A stretch of 10,581 nt of DNA from the UHGV virus genome UHGV-0266139. One strand, 5' to 3'. Of the stretch, positions 1,087-10,581 are shown in pieces; within the stretch, counting starts at the first letter, position 1, and each line of letters begins with the position of its first letter. The stretch is from a virus. Both the position numbers and the translations under genes were made by a program. Below the pieces are notes generated by a model. That model saw nothing but the letters and a program-made list of their open reading frames with translations. It was not told the origin of the DNA and did no database searches.

Positions 1087-2049
1087 TTAAGCTGCTTTGC
1101 GAACGTCGAACACATTTTCGAACGCATCAAAAACTTTAACTGTCATTAAATCGATGAATTGAACGGAAGAACCATTTTTCTTAATCAGGTATTTGTTCCA
1201 TTCTGCAACGTCTGCAACAGTACGCTTTTCGTTAAGCAGAATCCAAAGAGCTTGTTTGTCTTTAGATTCAACCGCTTGAGTAAAGAAGTCTTTAGATTCA
1301 ACTTCCTGATCTGCTTCAACTGCCACAGGAGCAACTTCTTTAGCTTTCAGTTCTTCAATCTCAGCTTTCTGTGCTTCGATGATCTGGTCTTTTTCTTTCA
1401 GTGCAGCTTTCAGTTCTGCGATCTGTGCTTCCAGTGCAGAGAAACGATCTTCAACAGCAACCGGAGAAACAGCATTCACCTGTGCTTCCAGTTCCAGGAA
1501 TGCTTCGCAAGATTCAATGCGTTCTTTCTCTTCACCTTCATAAGCAACCAGTTCTACAACTTCTTTTTCGGTAGCGTGGCTGTTAAAGAATACAGCAAAG
1601 TAAGGATTGCCGGATTTAGTGAAGTTCAGTTTAGCTTTTCCGGTAACTTCTTTACGACGACCAAAGGTAATGTTGCAATCAGCGGTATCCTGAAAATCCA
1701 TGTTAGGAGCGGAAACGATAGCAGTATCACCAGCAATAACCAGGTGGAACAGTTCAGAAGAGTTCTTAACGGTGAAAGTAACGATGTGGTCTACTGCAAC
1801 GTCTTTAGCAGGTTTAACGCGGTCGATTGCTTTACGAACGCCGTTAGACAGTTTACCGTCAACACCAAAGCCAGCCGCGATCAGTGCTTCACGATGTGCT
1901 TTAAAGCCAGCGAAAGCGGATTTCTGCTGCGCAAAGGAAACATGAGCAACAACTTTCGGCTGAATCTTCTTGTTTGCTTCGGTGCCAAATTTGATAACTG
2001 ATTTAGCGTTGGTTACTTCGTTAGTGAAAAAGTTAGCGGAAAATAACAT
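1087..2049 (-). CDS. Hypothetical protein, 320 aa: N-terminal domain, central A/E/K-rich coiled-coil region with an internal short repeat, C-terminal domain
   Basis: ATG at 2049 with AGGAG 8 nt upstream; long ORF whose antisense frame is F/C-rich junk. Internal DNA repeat TCTTTAGATTCAAC at about 1257-1270 and 1289-1302 (encoding VESKD twice). No family recognised. Confidence 0.7.
   Translation of the reverse strand: MLFSANFFTNEVTNAKSVIKFGTEANKKIQPKVVAHVSFAQQKSAFAGFKAHREALIAAGFGVDGKLSNGVRKAIDRVKPAKDVAVDHIVTFTVKNSSELFHLVIAGDTAIVSAPNMDFQDTADCNITFGRRKEVTGKAKLNFTKSGNPYFAVFFNSHATEKEVVELVAYEGEEKERIESCEAFLELEAQVNAVSPVAVEDRFSALEAQIAELKAALKEKDQIIEAQKAEIEELKAKEVAPVAVEADQEVESKDFFTQAVESKDKQALWILLNEKRTVADVAEWNKYLIKKNGSSVQFIDLMTVKVFDAFENVFDVRKAA
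1145..1164. repeat. 20-bp perfect direct repeat ATTAAATCGATGAATTGAAC, copy 2 (inside the 3-prime end of the 320-aa gene, encoding VQFIDLM on the minus strand)
   Basis: Identical to 200-219; hand comparison. Confidence 0.6.
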
Positions 2050-2729: not shown

Positions 2730-2912
2730 CGAGAAATGGCTATCAAATTTTTTGTTTGAAAATGGTAGATCAGGATTATCAACCTTTATAACCTATTATG
2801 GCACGGAGACCTTTTGACAATTCTTTTTAAATCATTAACTTACGCCACTTTTTGGTGATTTTTTGATTAAATAATATACAATAATTTTCTATCAAAATAT
2901 TTGATGGGAATT

Positions 2913-3105
2913 GCCCCTGAAATTCTGAATTTTTGCCCCCGAATAAAATCCCCAAGATTCCACTATCCAATTTTTGCCCCTGAAACCTACTATTTTTGCC
3001 CCTGAAATTCTGGGAAACAGTGATTTTGCCCCTCATTTTTGCCCCTGAAATGACAATAATTGCCCCTGAAAATCTAATTTTTGCCCCTGAAATTTGCCCC
3101 CGAAA
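2913..3105. repeat. Array of about 9 same-orientation direct repeats, consensus TTTTTGCCCC(T/C)GAAA, mostly 21-22 bp apart (iteron-like)
   Basis: GCCCC cores start at about 2913, 2935, 2976, 2998, 3028, 3041, 3062, 3083, 3096 (hand-counted); a further copy at 5446-5455 sits inside a terminator stem. Confidence 0.7.
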
Positions 3106-3246: not shown

Positions 3247-3265
3247 GGAGGGCGTAGCCCGACTG
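3247..3265. repeat. About 20-bp direct repeat GGAGGGCGTAGCCCGACTG, copy 1
   Basis: Matches 3678-3697 (GGAGGGCTTTAGCCCGACTG) with one indel; the two copies bracket the CTAG-rich module. Confidence 0.5.
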
Positions 3266-3285
3266 CGCGAAGCGCCAACCAATTG

Positions 3286-3530
3286 CTTCTAGTAACAACT
3301 AATTTAAACTAGATGATACTAGATGGTCTTAGAAGGAATTAACTAGTTTGCTCGCTCGCTTCGCTCACTCTCAAACGTCTGCGACGCCACTGCGTGGCAT
3401 CGAGAATCACTTCTGAAAGGATTTTCTCGAAAGGGATTTAAACTAGTTACTAACTGATTCTAGAAAGATAGTAATAATCACTTTGAAGATAATAGTAGTT
3501 AACTGGTTACTAGATGATTCTAGATCACTT
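3286..3530. repeat. CTAG-rich repeat module: units at 3308-3326, 3441-3467 and 3501-3527 (AACT(A/G)GTTACTA..TGATTCTAGA) flanking a GC-rich core at about 3348-3410
   Basis: Eight CTAG tetramers within about 235 bp against a handful across the rest of the window (by eye, not exhaustively counted); units 3441-3467 and 3501-3527 match at 21 of 27 positions; the core contains GCTC direct repeats and a GCCAC/GTGGC dyad. Confidence 0.6.
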
Positions 3531-3553
3531 TAATGATCATGAAAGGTATTGGT

Positions 3554-3582
3554 ATCCCTTCGGGATTGCAACCTTCGGTTGC
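3554..3582 (+). other. Two adjacent short hairpins: ATCCC/GGGAT (3554-3566) and GCAACC/GGTTGC (3568-3582), both with TTC(G) loops
   Basis: Inverted repeats seen directly; no clean T run follows, so RNA structure or processing site rather than a canonical terminator. Confidence 0.3.
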
Positions 3583-3677
3583 TAAATTGCTTCCTGATTA
3601 TTATTTCTCCAAAAGAAAGATTCTTATATTCTAAAGATACTTCTTCGTTTTGATGATGATTTAATCAAATCTATGAA

Positions 3678-3697
3678 GGAGGGCTTTAGCCCGACTG
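3678..3697. repeat. About 20-bp direct repeat GGAGGGCTTTAGCCCGACTG, copy 2
   Basis: See 3247-3265. Confidence 0.5.
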
Positions 3698-3786
3698 AAT
3701 ACAATCACCTTCTAAAAGAGATAAATTTTTCTCGTTATAAATAATAGTGAACTTACTTGATTCACTTTCTTTTAGAGGATACCACT

Positions 3787-4245
3787 ATGATCAATACTAA
3801 AACTCCTTTCGTACTTCTGGGTCTGGACTCTGAAAACTATGGTAACTTCCATATGCTAGAAGTTTTCGCTAATCGTGGTTATAACATCATTCGTCATTCC
3901 GAAGACTCCAACTACTCAACTGCTTTCTACGCTTTAAAACGAAATGGTCGTCCTACTGTGATCATCGACTGTTTTACTGATGAGGGTCGTCTTCAATACA
4001 ACGATATTCCAGCAATTATTGTTCGTGATGATCTGCCGTTTCAAGTCCGTGAGTATGACGTTGATTTAGGCTCTTACTACTCTTTAGCGGAACTTGACCA
4101 GATTATGGCTGATTACGGTAAACAACCCGCTCAGGAAGCCCCAGAACAAGATGAAGAAGATGAGGAAGACGAAGACTACGCTCCAATCTGTTTCTCTTCT
4201 CAGAATGGCTTCTACGGTTACGATGAAGGCTTAGATATGCTGTAA
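3787..4245 (+). CDS. Highly acidic protein, 152 aa (about 31 D/E against about 10 K/R), with poly-acidic stretch EQDEEDEEDED near the C-terminus; function unknown, candidate DNA mimic or other host-interaction protein
   Basis: Track ORF starts at TTG 3757; the ATG at 3787 has AGAGGA 7 nt upstream. Codon choice looks like a highly expressed enterobacterial gene (CTG, CGT, GGT, TTC, AAC, TAC), judged by eye. First gene downstream of the repeat-rich region. Confidence 0.7.
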   Translation: MINTKTPFVLLGLDSENYGNFHMLEVFANRGYNIIRHSEDSNYSTAFYALKRNGRPTVIIDCFTDEGRLQYNDIPAIIVRDDLPFQVREYDVDLGSYYSLAELDQIMADYGKQPAQEAPEQDEEDEEDEDYAPICFSSQNGFYGYDEGLDML

Positions 4246-4346: not shown

Positions 4347-4367
4347 TTTGTAAAGAGGATGTTAATT

Positions 4368-4514
4368 ATGAACACTACTAAGAAAGTTGATGGACGTAAA
4401 AACCCGAACCGCAAACCGTGGACCCCAAACCTGAATTTCTCAATGGTTGACTTCCATGAACGCCAGCGTCGCATTCAAGAAGAAATTGATCGCGCGATTG
4501 CTGAATCTAAATGA
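4368..4514 (+). CDS. Small basic protein, 48 aa (MNTTKKVDGRKNPNRKPWTPNLNFSMVDFHERQRRIQEEIDRAIAESK)
   Basis: ATG at 4368 with AGAGGA about 10 nt upstream, downstream of the promoter call; basic N-terminus, helical-looking C-terminus. Below the size of the supplied ORF track. Confidence 0.45.
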   Translation: MNTTKKVDGRKNPNRKPWTPNLNFSMVDFHERQRRIQEEIDRAIAESK

Positions 4515-4541
4515 GATAAAAATTTCTTTATAAATAAAATT

Positions 4542-4563
4542 GTTCCGGTTGAGATGCCGGAAC
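4542..4563 (+). other. Hairpin GTTCCGG / CCGGAAC with 8-nt loop immediately upstream of the Rha-like gene ribosome-binding region
   Basis: Perfect 7-bp inverted repeat; followed by TAGGAGGA, not a T run, so not a terminator; possible leader structure. Confidence 0.3.
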
Positions 4564-5628: not shown

Positions 5629-5856
5629 TCAAAAACCTGTTGCTTCTACGATCTGACCATCACCGATCTGAACATAGAATTTAATGTCTAACTTCTTCAT
5701 ATTCTTATAGAATTGGGCGATTGAGATCCCATGTTCACTAAGAATCTGTTCTTTCGCTTCCTTACCACGATCCGCTGTATAATAAGCGTAGGCAATATCA
5801 GCCATCTGTTCAGCGTTAAAACGGGCAGGGCGACCGCGAGTAGCTTTAGTAGTCAT
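5629..5856 (-). CDS. Small HTH DNA-binding protein, 75 aa (MTTKATRGRPARFNAEQMADIAYAYY...GISIAQFYKNMKKLDIK...), paralog of 2164..2343
   Basis: Track ORF starts at GTG 5889; ATGs at 5862 and 5856, the latter 9 nt from GGAG. RGRPARF then helix-turn-helix pattern resembles the Hin/resolvase-type DNA-binding domain (GRPR arm plus HTH), from memory. The start could be 5862. Confidence 0.55.
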   Translation of the reverse strand: MTTKATRGRPARFNAEQMADIAYAYYTADRGKEAKEQILSEHGISIAQFYKNMKKLDIKFYVQIGDGQIVEATGF

Positions 5857-5891
5857 AGTCATTTTCTCCAAATTAAAGTGAATGTTCACCT

Positions 5892-6494
5892 TTATTTAGA
5901 GGACTTACATTTTATCGGAAAAAGTTCTCCATCGTCAACCGACATAAAGAACTCTGCCTTAATCCCGTACTTCTTCAACCGTGAATAGTATGTACCCCGA
6001 CTAATATCAACCTTGCGAAGCACTTCGAAGAACTCTTTAGGATTCCTGTAATAATGGCTATAACGCACGTTAGCGAGTTCAACGAATAGTTCCCTTGTAT
6101 CACCATAGCCTTTCTTGAAAGCCTCGTTACGATAGCGTGTAATAGCGTGATTCGATCTCTTCTGTTTAAGCACTTCCCTGATCGGCTTCCACTGCAACCG
6201 ATAGATTGGACCGCCATCCACTCGATAATAACGCTTGATATCAAAATCAAACCATTCACGGACTCGCTGAAACTCTGTCTGTGATGTTCGGTGCTTCTTA
6301 AAGAAGTTATGAATATCGGTATACCCATGATCGCGATACAACTCGATTAAAATCTCTTTCGCTTCCTCACGACTAAAGCCAGATGTTGTGTAGTCGGTTT
6401 TTAAATGCTTATGCTTAACGGGTAAACGATATTCATGATCGGTACAAGACAAGGCTAATTCTAATTCATCTCTTTCTTGCTGATTAATTAGCAT
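5892..6494 (-). CDS. Basic 200-aa protein rich in R/K/Y with a C-terminal HTH module related to the two small HTH proteins; candidate DNA-binding regulator
   Basis: ATG at 6494 with AGGAGG about 4 nt upstream; C-terminal ...[26 protein letters not shown] aligns without gaps to the 75-aa protein (IS, Y, KK, IK). No nuclease motif (GIY-YIG, HNH, LAGLIDADG) seen. Confidence 0.65.
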
Positions 6495-9066: not shown

Positions 9067-10509
9067 ATGTTTAATCTTTTTCGACGCAAAAAGGCGGTAG
9101 AAACTCCAGTTAAAACTAATCACCGCCAGCAACAACCAAAAATTTTCATCGACAAACAAGTAGAAAAATTCCAGAAAGATTTGTCTAAGCGTTCTTTGGG
9201 CTTGGTCGGTGATCGCATTGATGGATCGCTTCAACAAGATACTATCACAGGAACCTTCAATAAGGCTCTCAAATCGAACGGTAAGCGCCTTTATGATCAG
9301 GGTCGTACTCTGGCCTTAAACACTTCCGTAGGCAGTCGCTACACGCAATACATCACCGATATGGTGGTTGGTACTGGCCTAGATCCGAAGCCGTCAGTTG
9401 TTAAATCAAATGGAAAACTTGATAGCGCACTGAATAAGCAGATCGAGAATGCTTTCTGGAAGTGGGCGCAGAATGCTAAACGCTTCTCTCGTAACGGTCG
9501 CTTTAACTTCCGTGAACTGCTGGTAATGGCTGAACGTGAGCGCGTTATGGGTGGTGAGTGCTTCATAGTTTTAACCAAAGAAAACAATGAGTTAAATGTT
9601 TCTATCCTGTCTGCTGATAAGTGCGACTGGACGCTCAACCGTGAAGTAAGCAAAGAACGTGCTATCTATCAGGGGATAGAGTATGACGTAGAAACAATGC
9701 GCCCTGTTGCATACTGGTTTCGTAAAATCAACCTACTGACTCAGACTTACACAGGTGATAACTATCGCGTAGATGCTTCGCAAGTATGCCATTATTATCA
9801 ACCACTTGCGGCTGAATCTCTGCGTGGTGTGACTGACTTCCTGCCAGTGATCAAGGATATTGCGCATCAAGACGCATTCCGCGAAACCGCGATCATCCAG
9901 AAACGTATTGCAGCTAGCTCTATGGGCTTTATCGAACGTCCGAAAGATTCTGGTGACGATTTTGATACTGGTGAAGAGGATGAACAATATCAAGCGCCGG
10001 AAGTAGTACAGGATTTTGCACCGGGTACTATTCAGGAATTGCCGGAAGGGGCAACGATCAAGAGCATCCAGGCGACGCAAAGCGGTGATGATTTCAATTC
10101 CTTCAATGATGCGATGTTTACTAGCGTATCAATGGGCTTAGGCGTGTTTAAACAGGGCTTGACTGGTGATACTTCCCAGATCAACTACTCAGCCGCGCGT
10201 TTCGGTGAACTACTTCAACGTAACCGTGTTAAATCGCTACAAAACAAATTGATTGAAACAGTGGTATTGCCAATTTTTGAAGCATATCTACGCCATTATT
10301 CCGCGCGTGGTATTGTTCCGATTCGTATTACTGCAATCCCGCATATTATCGATAACACTACTATTATTCGTCCGCGTTTTGAGTCCGTCGATGTTATTAA
10401 AGATGTGAACGCTGATATTGCTTTAATTGATAACGGACTTAGAATCTATCCCAAAAGGATTTTATTCCAGACAATGATGCTGCAAGCAAAATGCAGCATC
10501 GCCTCGTAG
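9067..10509 (+). CDS. Portal protein, lambda gpB type, 480 aa
   Basis: ATG with AAGGGG 6 nt upstream. Blocks FWKWAQNAKRF...NFRELLVMAERERVMGGECFIV and GLGV...YSAAR parallel lambda gpB (AAWKEFAED...TFTMMIREGV...GELFV; GLGVSYEQLSRNYAQMSYSTAR) from memory; correct synteny after terminase and gpW. Confidence 0.85.
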   Translation: MFNLFRRKKAVETPVKTNHRQQQPKIFIDKQVEKFQKDLSKRSLGLVGDRIDGSLQQDTITGTFNKALKSNGKRLYDQGRTLALNTSVGSRYTQYITDMVVGTGLDPKPSVVKSNGKLDSALNKQIENAFWKWAQNAKRFSRNGRFNFRELLVMAERERVMGGECFIVLTKENNELNVSILSADKCDWTLNREVSKERAIYQGIEYDVETMRPVAYWFRKINLLTQTYTGDNYRVDASQVCHYYQPLAAESLRGVTDFLPVIKDIAHQDAFRETAIIQKRIAASSMGFIERPKDSGDDFDTGEEDEQYQAPEVVQDFAPGTIQELPEGATIKSIQATQSGDDFNSFNDAMFTSVSMGLGVFKQGLTGDTSQINYSAARFGELLQRNRVKSLQNKLIETVVLPIFEAYLRHYSARGIVPIRITAIPHIIDNTTIIRPRFESVDVIKDVNADIALIDNGLRIYPKRILFQTMMLQAKCSIAS

Positions 10510-10581
10510 TTTTCGACTTTCTTCTCCCATCGCGTCAGTATGCGGCGAAAGCGATTCATCCAGCTATGTGTTCTTTCCACA
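10491..10581 (+). CDS. 5-prime end of the next gene (MQHRLVVFDFLLPSRQYAAK...), overlapping the portal stop by 19 nt and running off the window; by synteny possibly a head protease or scaffold gene
   Basis: ATG at 10491 in a different frame from the portal, open to the window end; the 19-nt overlap mirrors the lambda B/C overlap. No clear Shine-Dalgarno and no sequence match to lambda gpC, so weak. Confidence 0.3.
   Translation, partial: MQHRLVVFDFLLPSRQYAAKAIHPAMCSFH

Follow-up and report, generated by a model that had tools for sequence, protein, structure and literature searches.

What does a small, very acidic protein do in the control module of a temperate enterobacterial phage? The question is raised by the virus genome UHGV-0266139, of which a stretch of 10,581 nucleotides (nt; hereafter the window, which always refers to the whole stretch) was analyzed. 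An open reading frame (ORF) located at 3787-4245 on the plus strand, from the ATG at 3787 to the TAA at 4243-4245, encodes a product of 152 amino acid residues (aa). The protein has 31 acidic residues (17 Asp and 14 Glu) and 10 basic residues (3 Lys and 7 Arg), with a computed isoelectric point (pI) of 4.05 and a net charge of about -21; residues 120-130 read EQDEEDEEDED and residues 131-152 read YAPICFSSQNGFYGYDEGLDML. A preliminary description, made from the sequence alone, had reported this length, about 31 acidic against about 10 basic residues, and the poly-acidic stretch followed by an aromatic tail, all of which agreed with our counts, and had guessed from composition and position that the protein may be a DNA mimic or anti-defence protein like Ocr, ArdA or Arn. 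The assignment fared less well than the counts, given that the conserved charge was found in a disordered tail and not in the folded domain. As the best explanation, to which we give a probability of roughly 0.4, the tail would act as a binding module tethered to a small folded domain.

Charge partition and constraint in the acidic protein

The start codon of the acidic gene is identical in the RefSeq annotation of related genomes. Among 5.8 billion protein clusters, 74 clusters at 52-94% identity to the protein were found, all from Escherichia or Shigella and all annotated as "hypothetical protein". When 11 codon-aligned copies were compared, the median pairwise ratio of non-synonymous to synonymous substitution rates (dN/dS) was 0.29, with many synonymous changes. 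Based on these clusters and this ratio, the gene is real and under purifying selection, and a chance ORF is excluded.

Two AlphaFold (AF2) models of the protein agreed with each other. Residues ∼8-110 formed an alternating beta-alpha domain with a predicted local distance difference test score (pLDDT) of 72-89, while residues 113-152 scored below 50 in both models. This disordered tail of 40 residues holds 14 of the 31 acidic residues. Among 26 aligned members of the family, the net charge of the folded domain (residues 1-112), which is fast-evolving and mosaic, ranged from -1 to -10 with a mean of -5.7, and only seven acidic columns were conserved in it. The tail, with a length of 37-43 residues, had a net charge of -11 to -16 and contained no basic residue, or a single one, in all 26 members.

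The two parts of the tail differed in their constraint. The acidic spacer was the least constrained part of the protein at deep divergence, with a proportion of non-synonymous differences per site (pN) of 0.45-0.51, and it showed insertions, deletions and Asp/Glu swaps in alignments A1 and A4; its composition was kept nonetheless. The C-terminal 23 residues were the most constrained, with a pN of 0.20-0.30 compared with 0.42-0.43 for the domain (at deep divergence, where the corresponding synonymous proportion, pS, is saturated at ∼0.8). When the terminal motif was compared with that of loci L011 and L012, three to four synonymous changes and no non-synonymous change were counted. The last 23 residues of the family follow the pattern DYxP[IV]xF...Y[DN][ED][GA][LF]xML-COOH, in which D130, Y131, P133, F136, S137, S138, Y145, G148, L149, M151 and L152 are invariant or nearly so. 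Homologues from another genus, the domains of which are 37-41% identical, kept the acidic run as well as DYxPVVF...Y[DN][ED][AG][LF][DQ]ML-COOH, and the C-termini of distant homologues read DDYAPVVFSSNGCGY[YF]GYNEAFDML or DDYEPVVFYANDSYYNDGLQML. What selection has kept is therefore a polyanionic, disordered tail whose aromatic and hydrophobic terminus is conserved, and not a folded surface.

This partition of charge bears directly on the proposal that the protein is a folded anti-restriction or anti-defence mimic, the rigid acidic surface of which would imitate B-DNA and block type I restriction-modification, BREX or similar systems on entry. Like Ocr, ArdA and Arn, it is a small, very acidic protein of a mobile element with early expression; its composition is comparable to that of Ocr, its codon adaptation is above background in an early module, and its fast, mosaic evolution is of the kind seen in arms-race genes. 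Ocr contains 34 acidic and 6 basic residues, with ∼15 conserved acidic positions covering a rigid fold (PMC3439906). In the folded domain of the protein studied here, by contrast, only seven acidic positions are conserved, and the net charge is unremarkable and unconserved. No sequence or fold similarity to Ocr, ArdA or Arn was found, and neither the sequence nor the fold placed the protein in the ArdA family. The charge of these mimics is carried on a rigid folded surface, whereas the conserved charge is here located in a disordered tail, and for this reason the protein was not filed with Ocr, ArdA or Arn. Its status as a core gene with a fixed position across genera (see below) also counts against this proposal, being untypical of accessory anti-defence cargo, if not incompatible with it. 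A folded mimic is thus considered unlikely, while DNA mimicry by a flexible tail, as in SPO1 Gp44 or SSB-type tails, is possible.

The protein was also compared with known families and folds. Searches of the window protein against Pfam, PHROGs, NCBIfam and PADLOC gave no family match (at E ≤ 0.1-1 for Pfam, PHROGs and NCBIfam), and three homologues gave only noise far below threshold against NCBIfam and PADLOC. No relative was found in the PDB sequence set, by tblastn against 50,697 phage records, or among isolated phages and plasmids, the plasmid matches being confined to the IS5 end of the window. When 1.84 billion representative proteins were searched exhaustively with a profile, 11 matches were returned, all of them members or fragments of the same family except one. 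The exception, a repeat protein of 1270 aa (P0081) that matched positions 13-43, looks spurious as a remote homologue. The acidic protein is a lineage-restricted ORFan, and its architecture has not been described for E. coli phages.

No Foldseek match reached E ≤ 0.001, either among PDB structures or among viral models. The best fold matches were weak and generic, namely kinase-like alpha/beta folds, and all scores were below conventional significance. A P-loop nucleotide or nucleoside kinase was rejected given that the Walker A motif GxxxxGK[ST] is absent after strand 1, where the loop carries insertions and deletions, and a degenerate kinase was rejected as the key motifs are absent. A CheY-like receiver or pseudo-receiver was discarded since the phospho-acceptor Asp is not conserved (strand 3 ends in D, N or G) and Pfam gave no such match. 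The sequence [ST]-D-x-[DG]-R-E after strand 3 resembles the DxD of Toprim, but strand 1 is not followed by the catalytic Glu, and none of the searches turned up a structure or family of the Toprim type, so that this idea was dropped. Family and fold searches gave no match to a structural or packaging protein, which is consistent with the preliminary description.

A tethered acidic tail as the favoured explanation

According to the explanation that we favour, the acidic protein, a product of the early/control module of a temperate phage of enterobacteria, would be cytoplasmic and would consist of two parts. The first is a ∼110-residue alpha/beta domain that has no catalytic motifs and evolves fast; such a fast and mosaic N-terminal domain is typical of interface proteins. 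The second is the disordered tail of 37-43 residues, in which three properties are conserved: the net charge (about -14), the lack of basic residues, and an aromatic and hydrophobic peptide at the terminus, with [LF]-x-M-L-COOH as its end. The polyanionic spacer would be drawn, in the way that DNA is, to the basic surface with which a target protein binds nucleic acid, the conserved terminal peptide would anchor in an adjacent hydrophobic pocket, and the target would be blocked or recruited soon after induction or infection. We infer that the tail binds a protein, that this protein handles nucleic acid, and that a target of the host or of the phage would be either inhibited or recruited.

The use of an acidic tail as a binding or mimicry device is a general principle that is already known. 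In SPO1 Gp44, a folded N-terminal domain is followed by a disordered region with 57% Asp/Glu and no basic residues, which serves as a flexible DNA mimic on RNA polymerase, and the C-terminal segment is needed for full activity (PMC8208478). The acidic protein resembles Gp44 as an early phage protein in which a small folded N-terminal domain, an Asp/Glu-rich disordered stretch without basic residues and a C-terminal segment are combined. However, the two proteins have no sequence or fold relationship. The N-terminal domain of Gp44 is a DNA-binding motif of 55 residues, whereas that of the acidic protein is a net-acidic alpha/beta domain of 110 residues, and the acidic region comprises 67 residues in Gp44 but has a core of only ∼11-14 residues here. 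Moreover, the C-terminal part of Gp44, the target of which is RNA polymerase, has a mixed charge and no conserved aromatic motif.

The acidic C-terminal tails of SSB-type proteins (E. coli SSB and T7 gp2.5) contact partner proteins and compete with single-stranded DNA (ssDNA) for basic surfaces (PMC10359462, citing Marintcheva 2008). The likeness consists of a disordered acidic tail, a hydrophobic residue at the free C-terminus, and a spacer in which composition is conserved more than sequence; in the family studied here, residues 113-152 showed the low pLDDT and the net charge of -11 to -16 described above, and L152 is invariant at the C-terminus. The body of the protein differs. Instead of an OB-fold ssDNA-binding body, the model shows an alternating beta-alpha sandwich, and no SSB family match was obtained in Pfam or PHROGs. 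With a net-acidic body that lacks the OB fold, ssDNA binding is unlikely. The resemblance to SSB is one of mechanism only, and membership in the SSB family fails on the body. The tails of SSB and gp2.5 end in P-F or D-F. The terminal residues here are M-L, and the conserved motif, at 23 residues, exceeds theirs in length and has many Tyr and Phe residues.

Several observations weigh against a tethered tail that binds a target of this kind. Among the E. coli variants, the pS of the tail was 0.22-0.30 compared with 0.65-0.70 for the domain, and the gene is visibly mosaic; part of the apparent conservation in these variants is therefore due to recombination history, and only the deep comparisons give clean evidence of constraint on the tail. 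In P0054, a large cluster with 282 member sequences, the penultimate Met is replaced by Thr. A phage protein could just as well be what the tail binds, or the tail could serve in self-association. In addition, no counterpart of the tail motif was detected on any other protein among 1.84 billion sequences, and hence the motif could not be assigned to a known motif class.

The prophage control module and the alternatives it raises

The window represents a chromosomal prophage. Of the 5,426 complete E. coli genomes, 70 matched the window and 58 carry the acidic gene, with all copies being chromosomal; about 1% of complete E. coli genomes thus contain the lineage. The element of strain GN4741 has a size of ∼35 kb and interrupts ycdX, into which it integrates by means of a large serine recombinase encoded at its far end; no paper linking ycdX to this prophage was found in the literature. 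The closest isolated phage shows a TerL identity of only 43%. No recognisable replication gene (helicase, primase, polymerase or initiator) and no classical or CI-type repressor was found anywhere in the element. A control module of ∼6 kb, in which the acidic gene is located, separates terS from terL. The gene order of this module is kept in eight further E. coli loci and also in distant relatives from another enterobacterial genus, in which the prophage again lies beside a PHP-domain gene and the flanking ghrA is 71% identical to that of E. coli. Because the gene order is kept across loci and genera, the acidic gene is a core gene of the lineage and not variable cargo.

A location between terS and terL could point to a virion cargo protein or an assembly factor, the C-terminal peptide of which would dock on the capsid interior, the portal or the terminase, so that the protein would be packaged or would aid packaging. 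A domain, a flexible linker and a conserved C-terminal peptide resemble cargo-loading designs. However, no match to a head or packaging family was found, and TerS is encoded by another gene, which has 183 aa, borders attL at the far left of the prophage (L001, 18938-19489) and matched phrog_57 with E = 9e-17 and, weakly, Phage_Nu1. Accordingly, the acidic protein is not TerS, and a small terminase subunit of the Nu1 type was rejected for it, with no such match obtained in Pfam or PHROGs.

The promoter motif of the module argues in the same direction. Six sites with the motif TTATAAATANNNGTG were found in the window, compared with 0.12 expected, and they precede the helix-turn-helix (HTH) gene (twice), the acidic gene, the Rha-like gene and the first small ORF. 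Within L001, a locus of 49 kb, the motif occurs inside the control module only, and none was found in the structural region. Given that the motif is common to the control genes and absent from the structural region, the acidic gene belongs to the early/control regulon; the confinement of the motif to the control module argues against a virion or assembly role, which we regard as highly improbable. The motif looks like promoters of a -10-only class (TATAAATA), for which an activator would be required.

The signals around the start of the acidic gene were compared with what had been said of its expression. The promoter-like block upstream of it was kept even at loci where the acidic protein is <40% identical, while a simple sigma-70 scan called no promoter at 3726-3750. 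The inverted repeat at 3746-3766 may serve as an operator or as a stem-loop of the 5′-untranslated region. The ribosome-binding site (RBS) AGAGGA had been called strong; its core GAGG, 8 nt before the ATG, is conserved and the site is decent, but it is not stronger than the RBSs of the neighbouring genes. The codon adaptation index (CAI) was calculated with the weights of Sharp & Li 1987, and the background was obtained by re-encoding the same protein with codons as used in eight other genes of the window. The CAI of the acidic gene was 0.457, compared with 0.322 ± 0.033 for this resampled prophage background (z = 4.1). Codon adaptation is thus significantly above the prophage background, yet moderate in absolute terms, and the Leu, Pro and Gln codons showed no bias to major codons; the earlier statement that codon choice is typical of highly expressed genes was therefore overstated. 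The 320-aa ORF (1087-2049, minus strand) surpassed all other genes of the window in codon adaptation by a wide margin, with a CAI of 0.669 (z = 11.8). The acidic gene had also been described as the first ORF after a repeat-rich non-coding region. It does come first after the gap of ∼1.4 kb in the window, as it does in most of the related loci (L001, L003, L007-L013, L015 and L016), but not in L005 and L006, where a 218-aa endonuclease-like gene is located between the gap and the acidic gene.

The Rha-like gene, which lies directly downstream in the module in the same orientation, matched Phage_pRha of Pfam with E = 2.7e-11 and an anti-repressor family of PHROGs with E = 2.7e-17. With this neighbour, the acidic protein could be a component of the lysogeny switch, that is, an antirepressor or a cofactor of the Rha/Ant-like protein, which would inactivate the prophage repressor or another regulator at induction. 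The promoter-like motif that it has in common with the divergent HTH gene, upstream of which there are three LexA-box-like sites, is consistent with such a role, and a repressor could take the acidic tail for its operator DNA. However, no covariation of the acidic protein with the HTH, small-ORF or Rha type was found (Spearman -0.13 to 0.21), although it would be expected of a pair of regulator and antiregulator, and there was no similarity to known antirepressors. Sigma-70-like promoters are present between the acidic gene and the downstream genes, so the acidic gene and Rha may not be co-transcribed. A part in the switch is therefore held to be rather doubtful.

The non-coding gap upstream of the acidic gene contains eight iterons, TTTGCCCCTGAA, at a spacing of 21-22 bp (window 2910-3104). 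In eleven loci (the window, L001, L003, L005 and L007-L013), every iteron type went together with one type of the leftward protein of 313-357 aa, without exception, which gave five iteron/protein pairs, whereas all other genes of the module assorted independently. The two are a cognate pair of DNA-binding protein and site, either an initiator with its origin or an immunity determinant. The acidic protein assorted independently of iteron type; in L009 and L010, the N-terminal domains of the acidic protein are 99% identical, whereas the iterons and the large proteins differ. A role of the acidic protein as the specificity partner of the iterons was thereby ruled out by the mosaic analysis, in which the 320-aa protein co-varied with them instead.

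The same region raises the possibility of a replication accessory protein, the C-terminal peptide of which would recruit a part of the host replisome to the iteron and hairpin region (the beta clamp by way of a degenerate motif, or a client of the SSB tail) or, alternatively, would couple transcription to the clamp as MuC of phage Mu does. Neither the annotation of the ∼35-kb prophage nor the searches revealed a helicase, primase, polymerase or initiator, and the gene adjoins the gap with its eight iterons and conserved hairpins. The clamp-binding consensus is QL[SD]LF, or Qx[DE][LM]F in the Mor/C family, and the use of clamp-binding motifs by a protein of a temperate E. coli phage has been documented (PMC12867686). 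The C-terminus [GA]-[LF]-[DEQ]-M-L-COOH fits the middle three positions of these motifs. As in Mu MuC and Mor, a small protein of a temperate E. coli phage bears a short hydrophobic motif at its extreme terminus, and [LF]-[DEQ]-M-L resembles the core L-[SD]-L-F or x-[DE]-[LM]-F. Nevertheless, when the whole family is considered, the consensus [GA]-[LF]-[DEQ]-[MT]-L-COOH is compatible at three of the five positions, with Thr in place of Met in the largest E. coli cluster, and the protein lacks the conserved Gln and the terminal Phe and has no DNA-binding domain. The resemblance counts as a lead and falls short of a match. Independent assortment from the iteron and 320-aa protein types, as in L009/L010, also speaks against this role, and the gap itself is an origin only by inference. 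We regard a replication accessory as doubtful.

Finally, the C-terminal peptide could be a mimic of a host hub-binding tail, which in the manner of a clamp-binding motif, an SSB tip or an FtsZ tail would capture or neutralise a central machine of E. coli. For example, the host replisome or clamp would be loaded at the adjacent iteron and hairpin region, or early transcription would be coupled to the clamp as in Mu and T4. A resemblance of DYAPICF to the FtsZ tail or the SSB tip (DYLDIPAF or DDDIPF), which we take to be a lead only, involves a different order of residues. Such mimicry of a hub-binding tail is judged improbable; a tethered polyanionic tail that binds a nucleic-acid-handling protein remains the explanation that we favour.

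Features of the element and meaning of the acidic protein

The coordinates of the features of the acidic gene and the content of the control module are given in Table 1.

Table 1. Features of the acidic gene, sites of the promoter motif and gene content of the control module (window coordinates)
Feature	Position	Strand	Remarks
Promoter-like block TTTTTCTCGTTATAAATAATAGTGA	3726-3750	+	-10-like TATAAAT, no recognisable -35; conserved in all related loci
Inverted repeat AGTGAA-N9-TTCACT	3746-3766	+	Between promoter-like block and RBS; read from sequence; both arms conserved in alignment A5
Shine-Dalgarno AGAGGA (core GAGG)	3774-3779	+	Ends 8 nt before ATG; conserved in A3 and A5
Coding sequence of the 152-aa acidic protein, stop included	3787-4245	+	dN/dS 0.29; annotated in RefSeq relatives
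Residues 1-112: folded alpha/beta domain	3787-4122	+	Strands 8-11, 33-36, 57-62, 76-78; helices 18-29, 43-53, 65-71, 100-109
Residues 113-129: disordered acidic spacer, poly-Asp/Glu core	4123-4173	+	No basic residues; variable length and D/E order
Residues 130-152: conserved aromatic C-terminal motif DYAPICFSSQNGFYGYDEGLDML-COOH	4174-4242	+	Candidate short linear binding motif
Sites of motif TTATAAATANNNGTG	7-21; 2049-2063; 2402-2416; 2602-2616; 3735-3749; 4528-4542
Control module: leftward operon			59-aa HTH gene, 313-357-aa protein, further small gene
Control module: after the leftward operon			1.3-1.45-kb non-coding gap, acidic gene, variable small ORF, Rha/anti-repressor-like gene
Control module: last part			Two leftward genes of 75 and 200 aa

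Several further observations were made on the neighbours of the acidic gene. Three LexA-box-like sites (CTGTAT...CAG) are located at 2446-2461, 2531-2546 and 2549-2564, between two leftward copies of TTATAAATANNNGTG and upstream of the 59-aa HTH gene, and the leftward operon may be SOS-controlled; no LexA-box-like site was found near the promoter of the acidic gene. The 59/64-aa and 75/86-aa proteins (2164-2358 and 5629-5889, both on the minus strand) are paralogous HTH proteins (BLASTP E = 1e-9, 34% identity), and two similar motifs were seen by eye in the 200-aa protein (5892-6494, minus strand). These three proteins may be the repressor and the Cro-like regulators of the element. The 320-aa ORF has a central coiled-coil-like segment; its homologues are all "hypothetical proteins" from Escherichia or Shigella, and it gave no Pfam, PHROG or PDB match. 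Homology and PDB searches with the 320-aa, 200-aa and Rha-like neighbours gave "hypothetical protein" only.

The slot between the acidic gene and the Rha-like gene (4359-4514; also in L001 and L007-L013) is a swap hotspot with at least three unrelated alternatives, namely types of 48-51 aa (the one present in the window), 110 aa and 59 aa. The 218-aa insert of L005 (9236-9892) and L006 (7714-8370), which is similar to CapR/T5orf172-type endonucleases, was found in one distant lineage, and the promoter-like block is still directly upstream of the acidic gene in these two loci. A related 332-aa endonuclease-like gene lies near the recombinase in the E. coli prophage.

In the right half of the gap (3247-3710, alignment A5), small GC-rich hairpins were observed at fixed positions, namely GGGC-GTA-GCCC, GCGC-GAA-GCGC and two TTCG-loop hairpins at 3553-3585. 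The stems are swapped in a fully compensatory manner, the window having GCAACC/GGTTGC, L012/L013 having GACGCTC/GAGCGTC and L003 having GCCCC/GGGGC, which suggests a conserved RNA or structures for ssDNA initiation. No known RNA was found in the upstream gap with Rfam, even at E ≤ 1. At the right end of the window, the similarity of the portal gene to intact relatives ends at ∼10445, where IS5-family sequence starts (∼10438-10581). The portal gene is thus cut short, and the window probably holds a defective copy of the prophage.

If the tail of the acidic protein is a tethered binding module, it would be a compact natural case in which a disordered polyanionic spacer with an anchor peptide replaces a folded mimic. 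Proteins of this kind are missed by design in structure- and homology-based screens for anti-defence or host-takeover proteins. If, on the other hand, the improbable mimicry of a hub-binding tail were true, the protein would represent a new, sequence-unrelated class of tail-mimic hijacker in a phage that encodes no replication enzymes. Except for the Rha-like gene, no gene of the 6-kb control module has a recognisable function, and the partner of the acidic protein would be the first handle on the life cycle of a phage without recognisable replication or repressor genes.

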